Origin: Sphyrna mokarran
Taxonomy: Eukaryota
Direction of reading: 5' to 3'
DNA: 64,000 bases
Assembly (NCBI GenBank): GCA_024679065.1
Contig: JAGIQG010000013.1
Location: 19,220,001-19,284,000 of the forward strand
Below are positions 765 to 48,486 of this stretch, in pieces; the stretch's first letter is position 1, and the number at the start of each line of letters is the position of its first letter. The notes under the pieces are model-generated. The model was given only the letters and a program-made list of their open reading frames with translations. It did not search any database and was not told the DNA's origin. The position numbers were made by a program, and so were the translations under genes.

Positions 765-811
765 TATGGAGGGGGGGTGGGGAGATAGAGTGAACTGGGA
801 GTGGGAGAGAG

Positions 812-3555
812 ATGGGTGACAGGGTAAGTCCGGAGGGTAGGAGGGAAGATCAGAGAGTGCCTGAGGGCCTTCAGTGCATGTGTTTTAATGCAAGGAGTGT
901 GACTGGCAAAACAGATGAACTGAAGGCAATAATGTTCGAGAGGAAGTTAGAAGTGGTGGCGGTGACTGAGACGTGGCTAAAGGAAGGGCAGGCCTGGCAA
1001 TTGAATATTCCGGGGTATAAGTGTTTTAGGCATGATAGAGGTGGTTTGAGGAGAGGAGGGGGAGTGGCGTTATTAGTTAAGGATCACATCATAGCAGGGC
1101 AGAAGGAGGGTGGTATGGCTGAGTTAGGAATTGAGTCGCTATGGGTGGAGTTGAGGAATAGGAAGGGAGAGGTTACTATGTTGGGTGTGTACTACAGACC
1201 GCCCAACAGTCCACGTGCCATGGAAGAAGGGATACGTAAGGAAATTTTAGATAGGTGTAGGAAGAATAGGGTAGTTGTAATGGGAGATTTCAATTTCCCT
1301 GGGGTAGATTGGAAGGTGCCGAGAGCGGGAGGTGCAGACGGGGAGGAATTTGTACAGTGTATTTTAGAAGGGTCCTTGGAGCAGTATGTGGATAGCCCGA
1401 CTAGAGAGGGGGCTATACTGGATCTGGTTCTGGGGAATGAGCCAGGGCAGGTGTTTGACGTTGTAGTAGGAGAGCATGTGTCTAATAGTGACCACAACTC
1501 TGTCTGCTTTAGGGTATTAATGGAAAAAGATGAAGCCTGCCTTAAGGGGAGGGTGTTAAACTGGGGGAGGGCTAGATATAGCCAGATTAGTCAGGATCTT
1601 AAGGATACCGACTGGGATAAGCTGTTCGAGGGTAGGTCGACGCTGCACATGTGGGAATCTTTCAAGGGAAAACTAAAATTTTTGCAGGATAGACACGTGC
1701 CGGCAAGGAGAAAGGATGGGAAGGGTAGGATTAGAGAACTGTGGGTTACTAGGGATGTTGAGGACTTGGTCGGGAAGAAGCAGGAGGCGTACGTTAGATC
1801 CAGGCAATTGGGGACAGAGGCAGCGCTGGAAAAATATAGAGAGTGTAGACGGGATCTTAAAAGGGGTGTCAGAAAGGCAAAAAGGGGCCACGAGATGGCT
1901 TTGGCATGTAGGATTAAGGAAAATCCTAAGGCATTTTACTCCTATGTAAGGAGCAAAAGGATGTTTAGAGGGAAGATTGGACCTCTCAGGGACAGAGGAG
2001 GGGAACTATACTTAGAGCCTGAGGGAATGGGGGAGATCCTGAATGAATACTTTGCGTCAGTATTCACGCGGGAGAGGGGCCTGATGTCTGATGCTGGCTT
2101 TGAGGATTATGAGGACCTGTTAAAGGAAATAATCATTACGAGGGATGAAGTGTTGGGGCTTTTAGGTAGCATAAAGACTTATAAAGCTCCGGGGCCTGAT
2201 GGTATTTATCCCAGGCTGCTAAGGGAGGTGAGAAATGACATTGCTGATCCTCTGACGCAAATCTTTGTCTCTTCTGTGGACACAGGTGAGGTCCCAGAGG
2301 ACTGGAGGATTGCAAATGTAGTACCGTTGTTTAAAAAGGGTCAGAGGGATAACCCAGGGAACTATAGGCCTGTGAGCTTGACTTCAGTTATAGGTAAGCT
2401 AATGGAGAGGATCCTCAGGGACAGGATGTATGAGCATCTGGAGCGCTGCGATCTGATCAGGGATACGCAGCATGGCTTCGTTAAGGGGAGGTCGTGCCTT
2501 ATGAACCTAGTGGAATTTTTTGAAGAGGTGACAAAAACGGTTGATGAAGGACAAGCCGTTGATGTCGTCTACATGGATTTCAGTAAGGCGTTTGACAAGG
2601 TTCCCCATGGTAGGCTGATAAAAAAGGTGAAGGTGCATGGCATACAGGGCCAGGTATGTAGAACTGGTTTGGGAGGAGGAGACAGCAGGTAGTAGTGGAA
2701 GACTCTTTTTCCAACTGGAGGTCAGTCACTTGTGGTGTGCCACAGGGCTCAGTACTAGGACCTCTTCTATTTGTGATTTATATAAATGACTTGGAAGAGG
2801 GGGTAGGTGGTGTGATCAGCAAATTTTCTGATGACACTAAGATGCTTGGATTGGCGGGGACTGAGGAGCAGTGCCAGGCAATACAACAGGACATAGATAG
2901 GCTGGTAGATTTGGCAGATAGATGGCAAATGGAATTTAATCCGGATAAATGCAAGGTGATGCATTTTGGCCGGAATAATGTAGAGGGGAGTTATAGGATA
3001 AAAGGTAAAACTATCTGGAGTATAGAGACACAGAGAGACCTGGGGGTGCAGGTTCACAAGTCTCTGAAGGTGTCAGTACAGGTGGAGAAAGTGATAAAGA
3101 AAGGAAGGGGTATAGAATACAAGAGTAGGAGTTTGATGTTGCAAGTGTATAGAACGTTGGTTAGGCCTCACTTGGAGTACTGCATCCAGTTCTGGTCGCC
3201 GTACTATCGGAAGGATGTGGAGTCCCAGGAGAGAGTGCAGAGGAGATTTACCAGGATGCTGCCTGGTATGGAAGAGCTGTCTTACGAGGAAAGGTTGAAC
3301 GCACTGGGGATGTTTTCCCTTGAAAGACGTTGGCTGAGAGGGGATCTATTAGAGGTATATAAGATTATGAGGGGTATAGATAGAGTAAATGGTGGTAAGC
3401 TTTTTTCACCATTAGATTCGGATAGAACGAGGGGTCACGGCCTTAGGGTGAGGGGGGCTATGTATAAGACTAATATTAGAGGGCATTTTTTCACACAAAG
3501 GGTAGTGGGGTGTGGAATGCACTACCAAGTAAGGTGGTGGGAGCAGGCACGCTAG
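812..3555 (+). pseudogene. CR1 ORF2 (APE endonuclease + reverse transcriptase), frameshifted near 2655-2695
   Basis: ORFs 812..2692 and 2695..3555 are consecutive parts of one pol. An in-frame loss of about 8 codons near 3100 is visible against the copy at 18875-19546 (KKGRG vs KKAYGVLAFIGRG). Confidence 0.93.
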
Positions 3556-16681: not shown

Positions 16682-18467
16682 TTGCTTGCTATTTCACTCT
16701 GTTTACATAAATTTGACTGCTATTATTAAAGGATTGGTGCTGCATGACTGATTTCATAAATTATCATAGTTGGGTGCTCATCAGTTCACAGGCTAATTGA
16801 TAGCTCCAAATGCTTACATAACATGGACTATGAATACAAATGCTTGTTTTTATAAGGGATTACAATAAGTTAAAAGTATTGAATGAGTATTTAATCAATG
16901 AGAGCTTTTGTCTTGCAATAGTGAATTTATCATTAGATGCTTAATCTCTTTATGTAATCACAGCATGTGTCCGAGGGCTATCCATGATGGATACCAAATG
17001 AGTTGGTATAGAGAGTGTAAGGGAAAAGGCTGGTGAGCGGAGGCATAGGTTGGCACAAGTGGGCACAGGAGTTATAAAGGATCATTGGGCTGAGTAACAA
17101 GTTTGGATTAGCATGGAGGATATGAGGGCCTTTGGGGTGAGTAGAAGGAATAGAGTGCCAATGTTTGGCATGGATGAGGTATGAGGAGTATGTTGGGGGT
17201 GAAGAGCTGTGAGAAATATAATTGGAGGGCTGCTTTTGTTTTATTCCTTTCTCATATCTTCGACAAAGCTCCATGGCAGCACTTTTCACCCAGTCAGGTT
17301 CCCTGGCAGTGTGAGGCTAACCACTGTGTAATGTTTCACTCATTGATATGTCAAGCAACTAAAACTCTTTGGTGTCTTAAATTTCTGTTCCACATTTATT
17401 TAATTCACAAATTGAGCAATAAAGTGTTGAAAGTTAGAGTATTTGCATTAACTCAACCTTCAAGGAACCAGTGGAGTATGAAAGGTCAGTAGAGTATGGA
17501 ACTAAGAAGAAGTGATTGGGATACAAGTCTTGACGTTTTCCTTTGTGTATTTTATTGTATTTTCAGCTTGGATTTATGTGAAGCTTTTACATTTCAGTTG
17601 TGCAATGTTAAGAACAATTCAATATTTTCATATTAGATCACTTTTTCCATTAAAAGAAGTTTATTTATTAGTCACAAGTCTAAATTGTTTATTTTGTACT
17701 TTAGCTGGGAATGAGTTTCATGCAGTAATTGCTGGTGAATTGCTTTTAAAAAAGGTGCAATTAGTTGTTCAGTTTGCAGCTTTACCCTTGGTTGTTAGAT
17801 GTGTGAGCTGCCATCCCCCAGAAACAGTACAGAGGCTGCCAGGTACGGAACCTGACTGGGTGAAAAGTGCTGCCATGGAGCTTTGTCGAAGATATGAGAA
17901 AGGAATAAAACAAAAGCAGCCCTCCAATTATATTTCTCACAGCTCTTCACCCCCAACATACTCCTCATACCTCATCCATGCCAAACATTGGCACTCTATT
18001 CCTTCTACTCACCCCAAAGGCCCTCATATCCTCCATGCTAATCCAAACTTGTTACTCAGCCCAATGATCCTTTATAACTCCTGTGCCCACTTGTGCCAAC
18101 CTATGCCTCCGCTCACCAGCCTTTTCCCTTACACTCTCTATACCAACTCATTTGGTATCCATCATGGATAGCCCTCGGACACATGCTGTGATTACATAAA
18201 GAGATTAAGCATCTAATGATAAATTCACTATTGCAAGACAAAAGCTCTCATTGATTAAATACTCATTCAATACTTTTAACTTATTGTAATCCCTTATAAA
18301 AACAAGCATTTGTATTCATAGTCCATGTTATGTAAGCATTTGGAGCTATCAATTAGCCTGTGAACTGATGAGCACCCAACTATGATAATTTATGAAATCA
18401 GTCATGCAGCACCAATCCTTTAATAATAGCAGTCAAATTTATGTAAACAGAGTGAAATAGCAAGCAA
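16682..18467. repeat. Inverted duplication: arms 16682-17302 and 17847-18467 (621 bp each), 544-bp spacer
   Basis: The arms are reverse complements wherever checked; ORF 16978..17289(-) matches the last 103 codons of ORF 17512..18171(+). Confidence 0.95.
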
Positions 18468-18782: not shown

Positions 18783-19535
18783 TAGAACATAGAACATAGA
18801 ACATTACAGCACAGAACAGGCCCTTCGGCCCTCGATGTTGCGCCAACCAATATAAAAAGCAATGACCCTCCAAACTAAACCATTCCCTTCTCTTCCATAT
18901 ACTTATCAACTAACCTCTTAAACGCCACCAAACTTGGCGCATCTACAACTGCTGCAGGCAGGGCATTCCACTCCCGAACCACCCTTTGGGTAAAGAACCT
19001 ACCTCTGATATCCGTCCTATAACTATCACCCCTTAATTTAAAGCTGTGTCCCCTCGTGCTAGCTTTCTCCATCCTAGGAAAAAGGCTATCACTGTCCACC
19101 CTATCTAAACCTCTAATCATCTTATATGTTTCGATAAGGTCCCCTCTTAGCCGCCTCCTTTCTAACGAAAACAACCTCAAATCCCTCAGCCTCTCTTCAT
19201 AAGACCTGCCCTCCATACCAGGCAACATCCTGGTAAACCTCCTCTGTACCCTCTCCAATGCCTCCACATCTTTCTTATAATGTGGGGACCAGAACTGCAC
19301 ACAATACTCCAAGTGCGGCCGCACTAGAGTTTTGTACAGTTGCAACATGACGTTGCGGCTCCGAAATTCAATCCCCCTACCAATAAAAGCTAAGACTCCA
19401 TATGCCTTCTTAACAACCTTCTCAACTTGACTGCCTACTTTCAGGGATCTATGCACATACACACCAAGGTCCCTCTGTTCATCAACACTACTAAGAATCC
19501 TACCATTAACCCTATACTCTACACATTTATTATTG
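18783..19535 (-). mobile_element. Young 5'-truncated CR1 LINE
   Basis: Uninterrupted ORF2 C-terminus 18875..19546 (RDLGV, LVRPHLEYC, LERVQRRFTRM, FFTQRVV..WN.LP) plus (TATGTTC)n tail at 18783-18802. Confidence 0.95.
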
Positions 19536-20234
19536 ATTAAAATCAAATTTAGGAAGGCCTAGAGAGAATTAAGATAAAGGAGCTAGTTCTGTTAGCAGAG
19601 ACATCAATAATCTGTGGAAATAGGCTTTAAAGTCTTTAGTGAAAGAATTGGAGGCAGATTGAGGAGTTTGTACTCGATTAGCGGTGGTGTGGTTTGGAAC
19701 TGACTCCATGAACCAAGCAGTAAAAGTAATAAACTCAATCAGATCTTAAAAACATTTGGACATCTTAGCTTCAAACTGAGAGCCAGAACTAGATATCTCT
19801 TAGCACAGACATGATGGGCTGAATAGCTTCCTTCTGTGCAATGCACCTTTGTGCTTTTCAGCCATGATGAGCAAATTAGACACGTTTAATATCTTCCCTG
19901 AAACAAGTCAGTGGATTTTGCTGTGTGTGTGTGAGGCTTTGGTGAGCGTAGGGAACAGCAATTACCTGTAGTATCATTACATCAGAGATAAGGAGAGGTT
20001 TCTGGATTGTATGATCCAAAACAGTGTCACAGCTAGAGGCAGTGCTAGATAATTCAGGACACAAAGACAGTACAGAGTGGGAAGTGAATAACTATCCACA
20101 GGAGCAGTGAGATAAACATAACTAAATGCTATAGGTGATATACGAGCAAAAGTATAGAAACTCTGTCCTACTACTAACCTGTTTTGCTAAATTGGTGGAC
20201 AAAAGGATAGGGGGTGGGCTTCCAACAGGATTCT

Positions 20235-39756: not shown

Positions 39757-39974
39757 TTAAAAAGTACTTTCATATGTCCGCTTTGAAACGTGCCCAATAA
39801 AACTATAATTAGAATTAGAACTGCGATTTAAATTTTGATTGCTGTACTGACACTTTGGGGTGGTCGCTTGATTTTGATTTAGTTTTCGATTCAAGTTTGG
39901 CTGTGTTGAGATTATCTCTGGATTTCTTGATACAGTGTCAATATTAACATAGATCTCATTAACTTCAGGAATTG
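39757..39974 (-). CDS. Exon 5, cytoplasmic tail (A)IPEVNEIYVNIDT...CQYSNQ...SNYSFIGHVSKRTYESTF*
   Basis: Acceptor tttcttccatttcag|CA; open for 72 codons to TAA 39759-39757; AATAAA immediately after the stop (39756-39751); four Tyr motifs. Confidence 0.8.
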
Positions 39975-42900: not shown

Positions 42901-45900
42901 TCATAGTGTTTAAAGATGTCAGTTTTATCGCAGGGGAAGAGGGAGGCCCAATCATTCTCTGAGGGATGGAGGTGGGGGCAGCGAGCCCAGATGGTTCTCT
43001 GGTGGAGGGGGACAGAGGAGGAGAAGGGAGGTGGTCAGATGGATCTCTGATGGGCAGGGGGTGATCCCGGCCACTTTACGGGTGATTGGTGGGGAGGGGG
43101 GGGGGAGCAGGGGGTCGCAACCAGTCTGGGTAGCAGGAGGTGGACAGTTCTGTTGTGGGGATGCGGCAATGTCTGTGGGGGTCATTGCTCCCACTTCTTG
43201 CTCCCAGGCTGCTTTATCTGCTTTTTGCAGCTCAGGAGCGGTGTGACAGGGGAGCGTTTTTCAAATGCGCAGTTGAAGACTCTGATCGGAGAGGCAGCGA
43301 TTTGGGCAATAAAGCCTCCGCTCACGGCGGATTCAAATTCGCGACTTTTATTTCAGACTAAGTGCCTATGGGGGTGCCTGAGAACAGGTTTCCAAGTCAG
43401 ATCCTAATCACACTCAGAATCAGCACTCAGAATCAAAATCGCCCCCCTATGTTTCGCTTTCAACTATATTTTGTGGAAGTGAATTCCACACATTCACCAC
43501 TCTCTGTGTGAAGAAATTTCTCCTCACCTCAGTCCTAAAAAGTTTATAAGACAGGGCAACTGAATAAGTCAGGCTCTACACTGCTTGTGCCATAACCCAG
43601 TGTCACATGAATATGCCCACTGCCCCACTGTGACATCTTCCAATTCCTACAACAGGAACGCTGTCCACTCTCTGAATGTCAAAGGGCAGTCTCATACTGT
43701 GGGGTCATGTCCAGTTGGAACTGGGATGACAATATTGGTTTAAAACATGAAAAGACAGTGTTGTGACCCACTACACCAGGCTATTAATTATACAAATGAC
43801 ACAGTTATCCTGAAAGCTGACTGTGTAAGTGCACTAAGTCCTTGTTGGACCCACCTACAGGAACCTGGATTAAGTTGTGCAAACAGTAATAATGACTCTA
43901 TTTCCCCATATGTCAATTAAAACCTATCTACAAACTTCAACTTTGATCTTTTAAATTATCTGGATCTTACCTTTTCTTGAACGTTTCAATAATAGTAAAG
44001 AGATGACCCCAGCCACTAGAATTGCACACAAAAAAGCAAGGACCACCCATATATACATTCTGTCTGCAACAAAAAAAACAAGAAGGCCTTTGAATTAACG
44101 GCTTCAACAATATCAGGTCATCTGATAACCAATACAATAAATTTCTTCCCAAATCAAATAAATCTTACTGTTCTTCTTCATATTGGTCTGGAAAAAAAAT
44201 ATGAAAGTAATTGTGTTGGAGAAGCAGTAATTGAGAATAAAGCTATCAAACATCAAGCAAGATTTCAGAATATATTGAGTGTATTTCAAGTAAAACAGCT
44301 AGTACTATTTCACTGGACTCCTGGATAACCAAAGACTGCACAAAATCTGGTTGAGGATAAGCCTGAAGTTTATAAACATATTGCCCTTAAGTCCGAGGGA
44401 ATTTATGAAGGATAAGGCAGAACAAGGCTTAGGGTAGACACCTATTTGTGCAAAGGGAAGAAAGCGCTCAATGATTTGCGAAGGGTGTAATTTGAGGCAG
44501 ATGAGGTCTATCCACTGACCTGGTGGGACTTGAAAAACCCTTTTCAGTCTTCAGCCCAGTTTCTTGTTCTTTGGGGCAGGCTCTCCACTAACTTCCAGTT
44601 TAAGGCGACGTAACTTTACCTCAACCCGAGCCACGGGAATGGGAGAGTTCTCCAATGCCATTTAATTGCCGGATAGGTGTGGGAGATCGAGATTCCCATT
44701 CGGTTTCTTAATTTTTATGAGATTGTGGATAAGCGTAATTCATAAAATATAAACCTAACTTGCAGTTTTAGCCTGAGCAATCAGAGGGAATAGTAACAGG
44801 TTATCAATATTTTAGTAAAAAAGTTATGTCTAAGCTTTTCATATCCACAACCATTAAAGCAGTAAATTTTAAACATAAGAGAGATCAAGTCTATTTATTA
44901 AACCTGCAACCTTTTCCTAAGTACAAACAAAGAGTGGGAATGTAGAATGAACCTTGAAAGTACTGAGACAATTTCATTTTCCAGTTAAAAGGAAACAAAA
45001 AGTGGTTTTAAAGTGAGGGAAGAGACGGAAACTGTAAAGCTGTAAATACCTTCATTTAACGGTATGGTGAGATTCCTAATGATAGGGGTTTGCAACATGG
45101 AGTAATTCACGTGACATGAATATACATCACCGCTCTCCCAGTGAGAGAGGTTGACATAACTTGTTGTGAGATTGCTGTAGTTTGTGGTTGTAGTAACACC
45201 GGACTGAATCCATACCGAACCTTCTTTTCCTTTTTTATGCCACCTCAGTTCGATGTTGCCAGGGTAGAAGTTCTCTGCTCTGCAAACAAGTTGTATGCAA
45301 CACCCACTTTCAGGCCAGGAATGAATTTTAACTTCCACCGTTGGAGGAGCTTGGGAAAGGAAATGTAACAAGTTTTACTAACTTTTGATTTTTTAAAAGA
45401 ACTGTGTATATAATGATGTTGTTCTCTCAATTAAATGGTTCAATAACACATAGCTATACATGTTGGTTTTTATGTGAACAGTAATCTAAAAAAATTTCTA
45501 CACAAAGATGTTCATATTTCAAACTAGTTTGTGACCAGCTGATGTACAACATTTGATTTGGTATGGTCCCTGCTCTGTCCAAGACCGCAAGAAACTACAA
45601 AACGTCGTGAATGTAGCCCAATCCATCACGCAAACCAACTTCCCATTCATTGACCCTGTCTACACTCCCCATTGCCTCAGAAAAGCAGCCAGCATAATTA
45701 AAGATCCCACGCAACCTGGACACTCTTTCTTCCACCTTCTTCCGTCAGGAAAAATATACAAAAGTCTGAGGTCACGTATCAACTAATTCAAGAACAGCTT
45801 CTTCCATGCTGCTGTCAGATTTTTGAATGACCTACCTTGCACTAAGTTGATCTTTCTTTACACCCTAGCTATGACTGTAACACTACATTCTGCACTCTCT

Positions 45901-48486
45901 TGTTTCCTTTTCTATGAATGGTATGCTCTGTATAGCGTGCAAAGAACAACATTTTTCATTTTATGCTAATACATGTGACAATAATAAATCAAATCAAATC
46001 AAACAACAGAATTTTGTTACCGAATGCATTAGCATATTGATATGTTGTATATTATATATTTACAGGCATACTTAAGATTCTAATTATACCTTCTACTGTG
46101 AGGCTTGTTTTGTTTCCACGTAACTTTTTAGTAGGTGGTGGTACAGAGAATTGAATCATGCAGTAGTAAAGATCTGTGTCATTCAGTTGGAGATCTTGGA
46201 TAGTAAAGTCGGTAACTGCATCATTGATCTTCAAAGTAACGCTCGCTCGATTATCACATCCAGGACTCAGTTTCAGTGTATCATTCATGTACTGTATTCT
46301 ACACACAGGCACTTTCCACATATCCCGCCACCAGGAGACAGACATTGATTCTATCTCATGGTATGGGTAGGAACAAGTGATTGTCACGTTGTCTCCCTTG
46401 AATGCTCTGAGTACTGCTGGGGTTTGGGAAATTTGGACTTCACCATGTGTCAAAGCTGTTCCTATGAAAAATCAAAATAAATTAGCACTATTGGTTTAAA
46501 AACTATTTGAATATCTCTCTCTCTCTCTGAATCCATCTATTCATCAAAGACAGGGCTTTAAAATTATGATTGAACAGTGGCACAGTGATTAGCACCGCTA
46601 TCTCACGGCGTCAGGGACCTGAGTTCAATTCCTGGCTTGGGTCACTGTCTGAGAAGTTTGCACAATCTCTCTGTGTCTATGCAGGTTTCCTCTGGGTGCT
46701 CCAGTTTCCTCCAATGGGCCAAAGGTGTGCAGGTTAGGCGAATTGGCCATGTTAAATTCTCTTCTGTGTACCTGAAAAGGCGCCGGATTGTAGTGACTGG
46801 GGAATTTTCACAGTAACTTTATTGAAGTGTTAATGTAAGTCTACTTGTAACTAATAAATAAATTCTGAAATGATCATCCTTAATGAGCAAGAGCTCTGCA
46901 GATCAGCAAAAGTTGCCTTTTTTTTTCCACTTTTAATCATGATTTGATTCCAAGAAGAATGTAATCAAGGTATGAAACCTTCGCCAATCAATTAAAAATC
47001 TATCATGGAAAAACAAGAGGCTGTTTACTTTAATCATGTAAATTAATTGTGGGATTTAAAATAGCCATTTGAAAAACTAAGCAGTTTGTAATATCAATGT
47101 GTTTTATCAGAAGATGTTTATAATATCCTTGTCTGTTCAATGACAATTTAATGTCTTTAAATTTAATGTCTTTCTAGTTAAATGGGTTAGATTGAGAGTG
47201 CATCACTGAGATCATTGCCAGCACAACAATAGATTAGGATATTTCTCAATATCCAATACCTTCATGGTCCTGCTTAAATGCCTGGGGTGGTATGGTGACA
47301 CAGTGGTAAACACTGCTGCCTCACAGTGCCGGACCTGGGTTCGATTCCCGGCGTGGGTCATTGTCGGTGCAGAATCTGCACACTCTCTCCCTGCATCAAA
47401 GAAAAGTAAAAGTTTATTTGTTAGTCACAAGTAGGCTTACATTCACATGTCAATGAAGTTACTGTGAAAATCTCCTAGTTGCTACACTCTGGTGTTTGTT
47501 CGGGTATACTGAGGGAGAATTTAGCATGGACAATTCACCAAACCAGCATGTCTTTGACCTGTGGGAGGAAACTGGAGCACCCAGATGAAACCCATGCAGA
47601 CGCTGCATAGACAGTGACCCAAACCGGGAATGGAACCTGGTTTCCTGGCGCTATGAGACAGCAGTGCTAACCACTGTGCCAGAGTGCCACCCAGGATTTT
47701 CCTCTGGGTGCTTTGGTTTCCTCCCATATCCTGAAAGATGTGCTGATTAGGTGCATTGGCCGTGCTAAATTCTTCCTCACCGTGTATGTGAACAGGCTTC
47801 GGACTGTGGCGACTCAGGGATTTTCACAGTAACTTCATTGCAGCATTAATGTAAACTTATCTGTGATACTAATAAATAAACTTTAAAATGCCAATATATT
47901 GTCTATTGTTTGGCCTATGTCCCTTACTGTCCTCGGTAGCAACTAACAGTAATGATGCATAGAAGAGTAATGTAAAATGATGGAACTGCCTACTTCACAG
48001 ACATGTACTACCTTGCTAGCCATGAGGATACATTCACTATGCAGCAGTGTGGAAGACTTAGAACAAAGGTTTTTGAATTTTAATTGGTTTTTGGTTAAAA
48101 TAACATGAAAAATTTCACAGATAGTAGGAAGTAAGATTGATAAAATTAATACTGCTGTACATCATGACTATTTGCAGCACAACATATTATTTTCCCCACC
48201 GAAATGCAATGTGCAATTTCCTTTCAAATTCATGACAGATTCCTTCCCAATTCACTTGCTGTGAAATGAATACGATATATAAGCACCTGAGAACTTGACC
48301 AAAAACAGAAATCTTGCAAGCTGGCGCCTTTGATGATAGGAAGGTAACCAGCAGTGCTAGCAGCAACTTAAAACTATTACACAGATATTCTCTCAGCTTC
48401 ACTCATATTGTCAGAAAGAAAGTATCCTTACCTAAAGGAACCATGAGAACAATCCACTTGGTAAGACAATTAATGAACAAAGACAT
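39757..48486 (-). CDS. IgSF type I membrane receptor, Leader-V-C1-TM-Cyt, 345 aa; CD28/CD28H(TMIGD2)-like V plus Ig C1-set domain; join(48486-48432,46461-46090,45349-45050,44063-43971,39974-39757)
   Basis: Five exons with GT-AG boundaries, all phase 1, total 1038 nt in frame without internal stops; one domain per exon, as is typical of IgSF genes. Additional small cytoplasmic exons cannot be excluded. Confidence 0.85.
40228..40460 (+). mobile_element. HE1-like SINE (intron 4)
   Basis: Head, core and tail. Confidence 0.85.
40667..41855. mobile_element. GC-rich non-autonomous DNA-transposon-like element with a nested CR1 tail (about 41195-41297)
   Basis: Imperfect TIR-like ends (GGGATACTCCCA / TGGGAGAATC), C-rich core; nested GGGCCGAAGGGCCTGTTTCCTGTGCTG tail. 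Confidence 0.5.
42930..43450. mobile_element. Partial MITE related to 37936-38783
   Basis: G-rich core and terminal CACTCAGAATCAAAAT..GCCCCC similar to CACTTAGAATCAAAATGGTAAAATAAGGCCC. Confidence 0.55.
43971..44063 (-). CDS. Exon 4, transmembrane (D)RMYIWVVLAFLCAILVAGVISLLLLKRSRK
   Basis: Acceptor tttttttttgttgcag|AC, donor AAAAG|gtaaga, 93 nt; hydrophobic stretch followed by a basic stop-transfer sequence. Confidence 0.92.
45050..45349 (-). CDS. Exon 3, Ig C1-set domain
   Basis: APPTVEV..QLVCRAENFYPGNIELRW..TSYVNLSHWESGDVYSCHVNYSMLQTPIIRNL: C-x4-FYP-x2-I-x3-W and WxxGxxYxCxVx signature; acceptor tttcccaag|CT, donor GAAG|gtattt, 300 nt. Confidence 0.93.
45540..46003 (+). mobile_element. Rex1/Babar-type LINE 3' end (intron 2)
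   Basis: WYG.CS.QDRKKLQ.VV..AQ.I..IIKDPT.PGH..F.LLPSG; tail (AAATC)n. Confidence 0.88.
46090..46461 (-). CDS. Exon 2, V-set (VJ-type) Ig domain
   Basis: EVQISQTP..GDNVTITC..VSWWR..FTIQDLQLNDTDLYYC..SVPPP..RGNKTSLTVE; acceptor tttttcatag|GA, donor GAAG|gtataa, 372 nt. Confidence 0.95.
46575..46862 (+). mobile_element. HE1-like SINE (intron 1)
   Basis: Head, core and tail. Confidence 0.9.
47286..47885. mobile_element. Nested SINEs: a minus-strand copy (about 47408-47692) inside a plus-strand copy
   Basis: Plus head 47286-47392, inverted complete copy, then plus core and tail resume at 47693-47885. Confidence 0.85.
48432..48486 (-). CDS. Exon 1, signal peptide MSLFINCLTKWIVLMVPL(G)
   Basis: AAAATG start, 55 nt, donor TTAG|gtaagg; splices in frame to GTALTHG/EVQISQ, giving a plausible cleavage site. 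Confidence 0.85.

Follow-up and report, generated by a model that had tools for sequence, protein, structure and literature searches.

The 64,000-nucleotide stretch of Sphyrna mokarran DNA analysed here (contig JAGIQG010000013.1, or C335, positions 19,220,001-19,284,000; hereafter the window, in whose own coordinates features are given unless a contig position is cited) carries on its minus strand a gene for a predicted immunoglobulin (Ig) receptor that consists of a leader, a V-set domain, a C1-set domain, a transmembrane (TM) segment and a tyrosine-bearing tail. The available evidence suggests, with a probability that we put at roughly 0.55, that this receptor is a co-stimulator of the CD28H (TMIGD2) type which would bind a B7-family ligand, the best candidate being the product of a neighbouring gene, likely HHLA2, and would signal through YxN motifs of the Grb2/GADS type. 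This reading rests on the V exon and its unusual cysteines and prolines, on the tail, and on the genes next door.

The V exon spans 372 nt (46461-46090), is bounded by AG and GT, has phase 1 at both ends, includes the G strand and scores 45.3 bits against the generic V-set profile (PF07686). With residues numbered from 46441, it contains C23 in strand B, W37, C47, C62, C94 in strand F, prolines P101-P103 and G109-N-K-T. An earlier note, made from the letters alone, had singled out an extra cysteine pair, a C-strand tryptophan and an FG-loop PPP, and all are found in this exon, whose boundaries are exactly the positions given there; only the spelling VPVC-x14-PGC overcounts by two, since 14 residues separate the cysteines themselves (C-x14-C, or VPVC-x12-PGC). 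The extra pair (46256-46303) and the PPP of the SVPPP loop (46133-46141) are shared across a family of 41 aligned V domains: those of the window gene, its two paralogues and 38 database proteins. Forty of these have both C47 and C62, one has neither and none has just one of them, while the three PPP columns hold proline in 41, 40 and 40 of the 41. Because 31 of the 38 database rows were chosen by eye among 150 listed matches, out of 1379, to a profile that contains these cysteines (seven additional family-like matches were left out), the cysteine count leans upward; among 28 V domains from outside the family, one has a Cys at the C62 column. The canonical cysteines are less constant: that of strand B is present in 32 of 41 family domains (one of the nine misses is a truncated model) and that of strand F in 38. 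Every shark orthologue seen other than the S. mokarran gene lacks the B-strand Cys, and two catshark orthologues and a caecilian relative have lost both canonical residues and keep only the extra pair (P0002, P0004-P0009, P0037); the S. mokarran domain has all four. The predicted structure (61-row alignment, pLDDT 92) places C47 within strand C' and C62 within the C''-D loop. The persistence of the extra pair where the canonical one is lost argues most strongly for a C47-C62 bond, which we infer to be a CD28-type second disulfide able to hold the domain once the canonical pair is gone. The FG loop fits more naturally as a variant of the EIPPP found in CD28H-type proteins than of MYPPPY, with which the earlier note had compared it (SVPPPT).

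Does this exon belong to a working gene? That it is part of a real, conserved one is close to certain. The other exons were located by tblastn with shark orthologues and joined by coordinates: a leader exon with its ATG at 48486 and a phase-1 GT donor (48432-48486); a C1-set exon (45050-45349), which scores 41 bits against PF07654 (cut-off 21), is 61-68% identical to its orthologues and has, in the alignment, two extra adjacent cysteines ahead of the B-strand Cys; a TM exon (43971-44063) whose hydrophobic span has no charged residue and no YxxxxT; and a last exon with the cytoplasmic tail and stop (39757-39974), which was placed with the help of orthologue tails. Together with the V exon they form a predicted five-exon gene with canonical splice sites and an open frame of 345 aa, 11 sequons in the whole chain, and 54-61% identity over about 350 columns to each of the five orthologues compared. 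Orthologous models exist in eight other shark species, where they are labelled "uncharacterized", "hypothetical" or MHC-like. The earlier picture of a CD28-family receptor missed the C1-set domain between V and TM, as well as the gene context. A candidate stalk mini-exon of 19 nt (44169-44187) would be in frame only with a second acceptor, at which the TM exon starts at 44059; both splice paths, with or without it, leave the frame open. Read through, its donor leads to an immediate stop (DQYEEEQ*), which, as far as sequence can tell, would yield a secreted V-C1 form.

The tail contains four tyrosines, in YVNI (39951-39940), YSNQ, SNYSFI (39813-39796) and YEST, the first of which conforms to the consensus Y-[EGVTA]-N-[VIMT] published for CD28H. 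Two or more YxN motifs, as in the window gene, occur in 14 of 39 family tails (sharks, paddlefish, bowfin, gar and arapaima); another 16 have one Yxx[LVI] and no YxN, and only some of these are canonical immunoreceptor tyrosine-based inhibitory or switch motifs (ITIM/ITSM); the remaining nine are cut short, of mixed type or blank. In the C1 tree, domains of the YxN type cluster across cartilaginous and bony fishes (SH-aLRT 87, unstarred), and most have the extra Cys before strand B; the V domains of this type do not cluster in the larger tree. On the strength of these motifs, activating YxN signalling by the tail is rather likely.

The window gene is the middle of three V-C1 paralogues, flanked on C335 by a minus-strand gene at 19.17 Mb and a plus-strand gene at 19.30 Mb; no further Ig exon was found between the three. 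Both flanking genes have EIPPP, GxG in the G strand and the extra Cys pair, and their V domains are about 30% identical to that of the window gene. The cluster combines three signalling anatomies: the minus paralogue joins a plain TM to a last exon that encodes VIYSLL, a canonical ITIM; the window gene has its YxN tyrosines; and the plus paralogue has an Arg near the outer end of its TM, as does the stingray relative P0022 (a tail exon for this paralogue was looked for and not found). The C1 exons of the two flanking genes (L036 and L035; C335:19,170,341-19,170,679 and 19,309,212-19,309,550) lie 139 kb apart on opposite strands, yet their DNA agrees at 97% over 339 nt, against 66% for the V exons. 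This disparity suggests gene conversion, as in paired receptors, and from the sequences such conversion is the likely explanation.

Past the minus paralogue, three Ig exons at 19.135, 19.134 and 19.128 Mb encode a B7-type V, a B7/butyrophilin-type C and a second V domain; the best PDB matches of the first V are CD276 and B7-H4. Next beyond come CIP2A (plus) and DZIP3/TTC3 (minus), and on the cluster's other flank lies BBX (minus), recognised through P0049 by its HMG box and DUF2028. The human order is BBX, CD47, IFT57, HHLA2, MYH15, CIP2A, DZIP3. Because the shark order and strands mirror it, the neighbouring B7 gene is taken as HHLA2, a likely assignment that rests on map and domain order: three exons encode its B7-type IgV-IgC-IgV ectodomain. 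HHLA2 has the IgV-IgC-IgV layout, maps to 3q13.13 and binds TMIGD2 via IgV1 (PMC10173190). IFT57 is not at the shark cluster; it is on C771 (CD47 was not searched for). P0049 is a model that fuses BBX to a family member and is 90% identical to a paddlefish protein over its Ig part, which implies that in this fish, too, BBX adjoins a family gene; the accessions of two zebra-shark family proteins follow one another. In the HHLA2-like gene, the third Ig domain (L032:8185-8490, minus) has two extra cysteines 12 residues apart and a family-profile score like those of other B7 V domains; derivation of the family V from it was considered and rejected (31.8 bits, versus 32.0 for an unrelated B7 V). 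Between DZIP3 and CIP2A, at about 19.006 Mb of C335, lies a short exon (L087:6297-6446, plus) that resembles the final part of an SH2 adaptor of the SAP/EAT-2 (SH2D1) kind; a Pfam search of it gave no match.

Who, then, would be the ligand of the window V domain? By analogy with CD28H, some B7 protein is somewhat favoured. HHLA2 is a candidate because of gene linkage and of the known ligand of TMIGD2, and as the specific partner it is a tentative one. Two considerations counsel caution: the B7 ligands described so far mostly have genes apart from those of their receptors, and V domains that share about 30% identity do not make a common ligand for the three paralogues a given. A complex prediction for the window V with the first V of the neighbouring B7 gene scored 0.34 and one unrelated control 0.76, so that it carries no weight either way. 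If the proposal holds, the front sheet and PPP loop of V would engage a B7 V domain, as in CD28H; the glycosylated C1 stalk would raise the V domain; and phosphorylated YVNI would recruit Grb2/GADS, adding to antigen-receptor or natural killer (NK) cell signalling. The ITIM paralogue would inhibit and the TM-Arg paralogue would activate through an adaptor, and the three could thereby read one ligand class with opposite outcomes.

How CD28-like is the V domain itself? Its descent from the CD28 family is probable, and its CD28 affinity is supported, not proven, mainly by the motifs singled out at the start, the tail and the ligand neighbour. In a genome search that scored 22 candidates, the ICOS V-set profile (PF15910) exceeded its cut-off at three places only, the two paralogues and one CD28/CTLA4 gene. 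Outside the cluster, the best genome matches of the window V and of one paralogue V are CD28H, HL1, HL2, CD28X (named by motif match to supplement 4 of PMC11599192) and a similar PPP gene; with the window V as query, three of these outrank every T-cell receptor (TCR) V listed. The family profile gives 57-74 bits for 16 PPP-type V domains, as opposed to 33-41 for three TCR and 35-36 for four SIRP-like V domains. Foldseek, run with the pLDDT-92 model, returns CTLA-4 chains at all of ranks 1-8, with antibody E-values close behind (1.2e-9 vs 2.9e-10); the alignment behind that model includes CD28H-like rows, and the model replaced an earlier 11-row one (pLDDT 59, G strand unfolded) whose CTLA-4/CD28 matches were partly strand-swapped entries.

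Several results are neutral to this assignment or weigh against it. The window V, which has GNK where the paralogues have GNG and GKG and so lacks the GxG of the G strand, reaches no more than 14.1 bits against PF15910, level with CD28X and HL1 and under the cut-off of 28. The earlier note had held that a CD28 profile doing no better than generic V-set would speak against its idea, and with 14.1 bits set beside 45.3 that is, in part, what is seen. Once the FG loop and G strand are cut, CD28H, HL1, HL2 and CD28X of the same genome score 34-38 bits on the family profile and TCR 32-40, so that the margin is gone; even uncut, three shark CD28/CTLA4 V domains (36-39 bits) do no better than TCR. By geometry alone (VIA), Ig, TCR-alpha and PD-1 tie at Z 15-16.5, CTLA-4 falls outside both top-50 lists and CD28 ranks 33 (Z 14.2, rmsd 2.5, 114 aligned). 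Sequence searches of the PDB are dominated by antibodies, with Ig light chains as matches. In V trees with 69 and 34 rows the deep branching stays undecided and the family is not recovered as a single clade; topology tests reject neither one clade for the family (p-AU 0.22) nor a clade joining it with SIRP-like V domains (p-AU 0.085). In the Atlas, the best match is a PD-1-family cluster (0.96), and generic V-set clusters at 0.95 deprive it of discrimination. The CD28-family likeness first proposed from the motifs draws support from the ICOS V-set matches of the paralogues, the family profile and Foldseek, and is left wanting by the window V's own ICOS score, the tied geometry and the antibody matches in the PDB.

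The strongest competitor, which we regard as rather unlikely, is that the gene encodes a non-rearranging VJ-C1 receptor (PRARP/VJC1/SIRP-like) with a non-B7 ligand, its PPP and extra cysteines arising by convergence or from remote ancestry. A one-exon V domain with its G strand followed by a true C1-set domain is what such a receptor would have, and the light-chain matches, the rank of UrIg2 (sixth for the full-length profile) and the geometric tie with TCR-alpha point the same way, as do a quick C1 tree that joins the family with shark SIRP-like C1 domains (SH-aLRT 93 and 80, unstarred) and the joint V clade that p-AU does not reject. The V domains tell against it. SIRP-like V domains lack PPP and both extra cysteines, form a clade of their own (100/99) and score 35-36 bits where the family scores 57-74, whereas paralogues with EIPPP and GxG pass the ICOS V-set cut-off; furthermore, the adjoining gene is a B7.

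A CD28-type receptor need not be activating. The possibility that this one is inhibitory, modulatory or adhesive, with SNYSFI recruiting SHP/SHIP or with homophilic binding, is unlikely in our estimate, even though SNYSFI sits uneasily with a purely co-stimulatory tail: it is ITIM-like (S-x-Y-x-x-I) and conserved in all six complete shark orthologue tails. TMIGD2 serves as an adhesion molecule too (PMC10173190), and the loss of the B-strand Cys in most shark orthologues hints at a changed domain. Bony-fish relatives of the YxN type, however, mostly lack a SNYSFI-like motif, yet keep two YxN, and the cluster already has a separate ITIM paralogue. That the exon is what remains of a silenced or decaying gene, with motifs that have no current function in S. 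mokarran, is highly improbable: the C1-TM junction is unlike that of the orthologues, with its two possible splice paths, and the last tyrosine has lost the asparagine of YxN, but the five exons still make an open, canonically spliced frame with orthologues in eight other sharks and relatives in bony vertebrates.

The co-stimulator favoured here would belong to a widespread family. Run against 1.84 billion representatives, a profile search produced the 1379 matches mentioned above, 150 of them listed; 20 top V(PPP)-C1 matches belong to chimaera, sawshark, white shark, zebra shark, sawfish, stingray, skate and lungfish, and to sturgeon, paddlefish, gar, bowfin, arapaima, conger, cyprinids, loach, a caecilian and sea turtles. 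No mammalian member was among the matches found in these searches; a "near" homologue search returned nothing, and one among proteins of 600-2000 aa a single, unrelated-looking match. The accessions of one chimaera member are of the NP_ and AFK types, which mark cDNA. The fish relatives P0032, P0128, P0115 and P0033 contain a tandem (V-C1)x2 or a duplicated V within one model. Database labels of the relatives (Ig light chain-like, SIRP-alpha-like, MHC-like, CEACAM-like, uncharacterized) are wrong or empty, which hides the family from searches by name. Literature searches, from whose coverage subscription journals are mostly absent, yielded no description of it, including in the parts of PMC10751288 and PMC12227049 available to us, and none of the accession stems searched for occurs in nine supplements of PMC11599192. 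Ohta 2019 or Fu 2019 may include a family member among their VJ-C1 genes; the CD28/HHLA2 link would then lose some of its novelty, though not all.

Elsewhere in the genome, C760:36,897,135-36,946,800 (L115, L116, L120) holds another V-C1 gene, which has ISPPP and GKG but no extra Cys pair where the family alignment has it. A B7-type V exon is some 38 kb away, followed by a NACHT-LRR-like gene; the relatives P0090 and P0153 have the same V-C1 layout. The two C760 genes may be a paralogous receptor/ligand pair. The rest of the window contains ordinary shark repeats, namely LINE-type endonuclease/reverse-transcriptase fragments, frameshifted or truncated (794-3555, plus; 18875-19558, minus; 45530-45990), and a near-perfect local duplication of non-coding DNA (about 16978-17316 and 17830-18171, plus), whose two open reading frames share a terminal translation of ~105 residues about 855 nt apart.

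The position beside HHLA2 allows a direct test of receptor-ligand linkage, and the family offers candidates for an inhibitory HHLA2 receptor where KIR3DL3 is lacking; through it, V domains of the CD28 type would also be linked to the VJ-C1 layout seen in antigen receptors. A bolder proposal goes further: an undescribed, C1-bearing CD28-type branch would have stood beside HHLA2 since the jawed-vertebrate ancestor, as a co-stimulatory, inhibitory and adaptor-coupled set for HHLA2, an ancestral checkpoint that predates KIR3DL3 and a surviving link between the CD28 family and the VJ-C1 precursors of antigen receptors. On the same proposal, the C760 V(PPP)-C1 gene next to a B7-type gene would point to an origin of CD28-type receptors and B7 ligands as linked partners. 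We consider it speculative and doubtful as a whole.

Where does the gene stand among known receptor systems? Non-rearranging VJ-C1 genes reportedly include PRARP, attributed to Fu 2019, and VJC1 genes of Xenopus, attributed to Ohta 2019. Like PRARP, VJC1, UrIg and UrIg2, the window gene has a one-exon V domain with its G strand and a C1-set domain, and does not rearrange; unlike them, it has RGNKT in place of the J motif FGxGT. None of the sequences met in the searches bears the name PRARP or VJC1. UrIg is MHC-linked and multi-C, unlike the window gene. The shark SIRP-like family on contig C993 shares the V-C1-TM order, activating and inhibitory versions and possibly a related C1 domain; it differs in the V features already given, the window V falling outside its clade, and in being a large multigene array rather than three genes.

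CD28, CTLA-4 and ICOS resemble the window gene in the C' Cys, the second Cys before strand D, the PPP loop and N-x-T-D-x-Y-x-C. The first extra Cys aligns with the C' Cys of all three shark CD28/CTLA4 genes, which form a cassette on contig C113 of the same genome. The window gene differs in keeping W37, in a Cys spacing of 14 as opposed to 15-19 in the shark trio, in having a C1 domain, and in lacking [MLI][YF]PPPY, a YxxM tail and the TM YxxxxT. The C' Cys is common to CD28, CTLA-4, ICOS and amniote CD28H, and not shark CD28H, in the part of PMC11599192 supplement 3 available to us. A second Cys pair, which had been ascribed to TMIGD2, holds for amniote CD28H and is absent from that of shark, skate, chimaera and lungfish.

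CD28H/TMIGD2, CD28HL1-3 and CD28X are alike in the C-strand Trp, the (EI)PPP-type FG loop and the juxtamembrane Y-V-N-I, and their GxG recurs in the paralogues; human CD28H has C-x13-C where the window V has C-x14-C. They have no C1 domain, whereas the window gene has one and occupies another locus (BBX-HHLA2-CIP2A-DZIP3). Better orthologues of CD28H, HL1, HL2 and CD28X, all without the Cys pair, lie on other contigs of the same genome. A CD28H/TMIGD2 orthologue would have an EIP loop and match shark CD28H best; the window gene has SVPPP, and the V domain at C838:32.59 Mb fits the epaulette-shark CD28H motif far better. Orthology to CD28HL3, which goes with the prkab1b/pla2g1b/tmem233 block and with ITIM plus ITSM, was rejected on synteny: AMPK-beta and group-I PLA2 matches occur together on C772 and not on C335 (tmem233 was not searched for).

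In PMC11599192 (Quiniou et al., 2024), the CD28 family comprises nine members, each with a single V domain, and its origin is called unresolved. The window gene has the FG-loop proline motif of that definition (SVPPP; EIPPP in both paralogues) and its tyrosine motif (YVNI); it lacks the optional G-strand GxG, and DZIP3, CIP2A, the V-C-V B7 gene and BBX are not among the syntenic markers in the part of the main text available to us. The C1-set exon between V and TM, present in the orthologue models as well, breaks the single-V definition, a filter that would remove the entire V-C1 branch, from chimaera to turtles. The window gene is therefore no member of the CD28 family as defined, but it probably works like CD28H.

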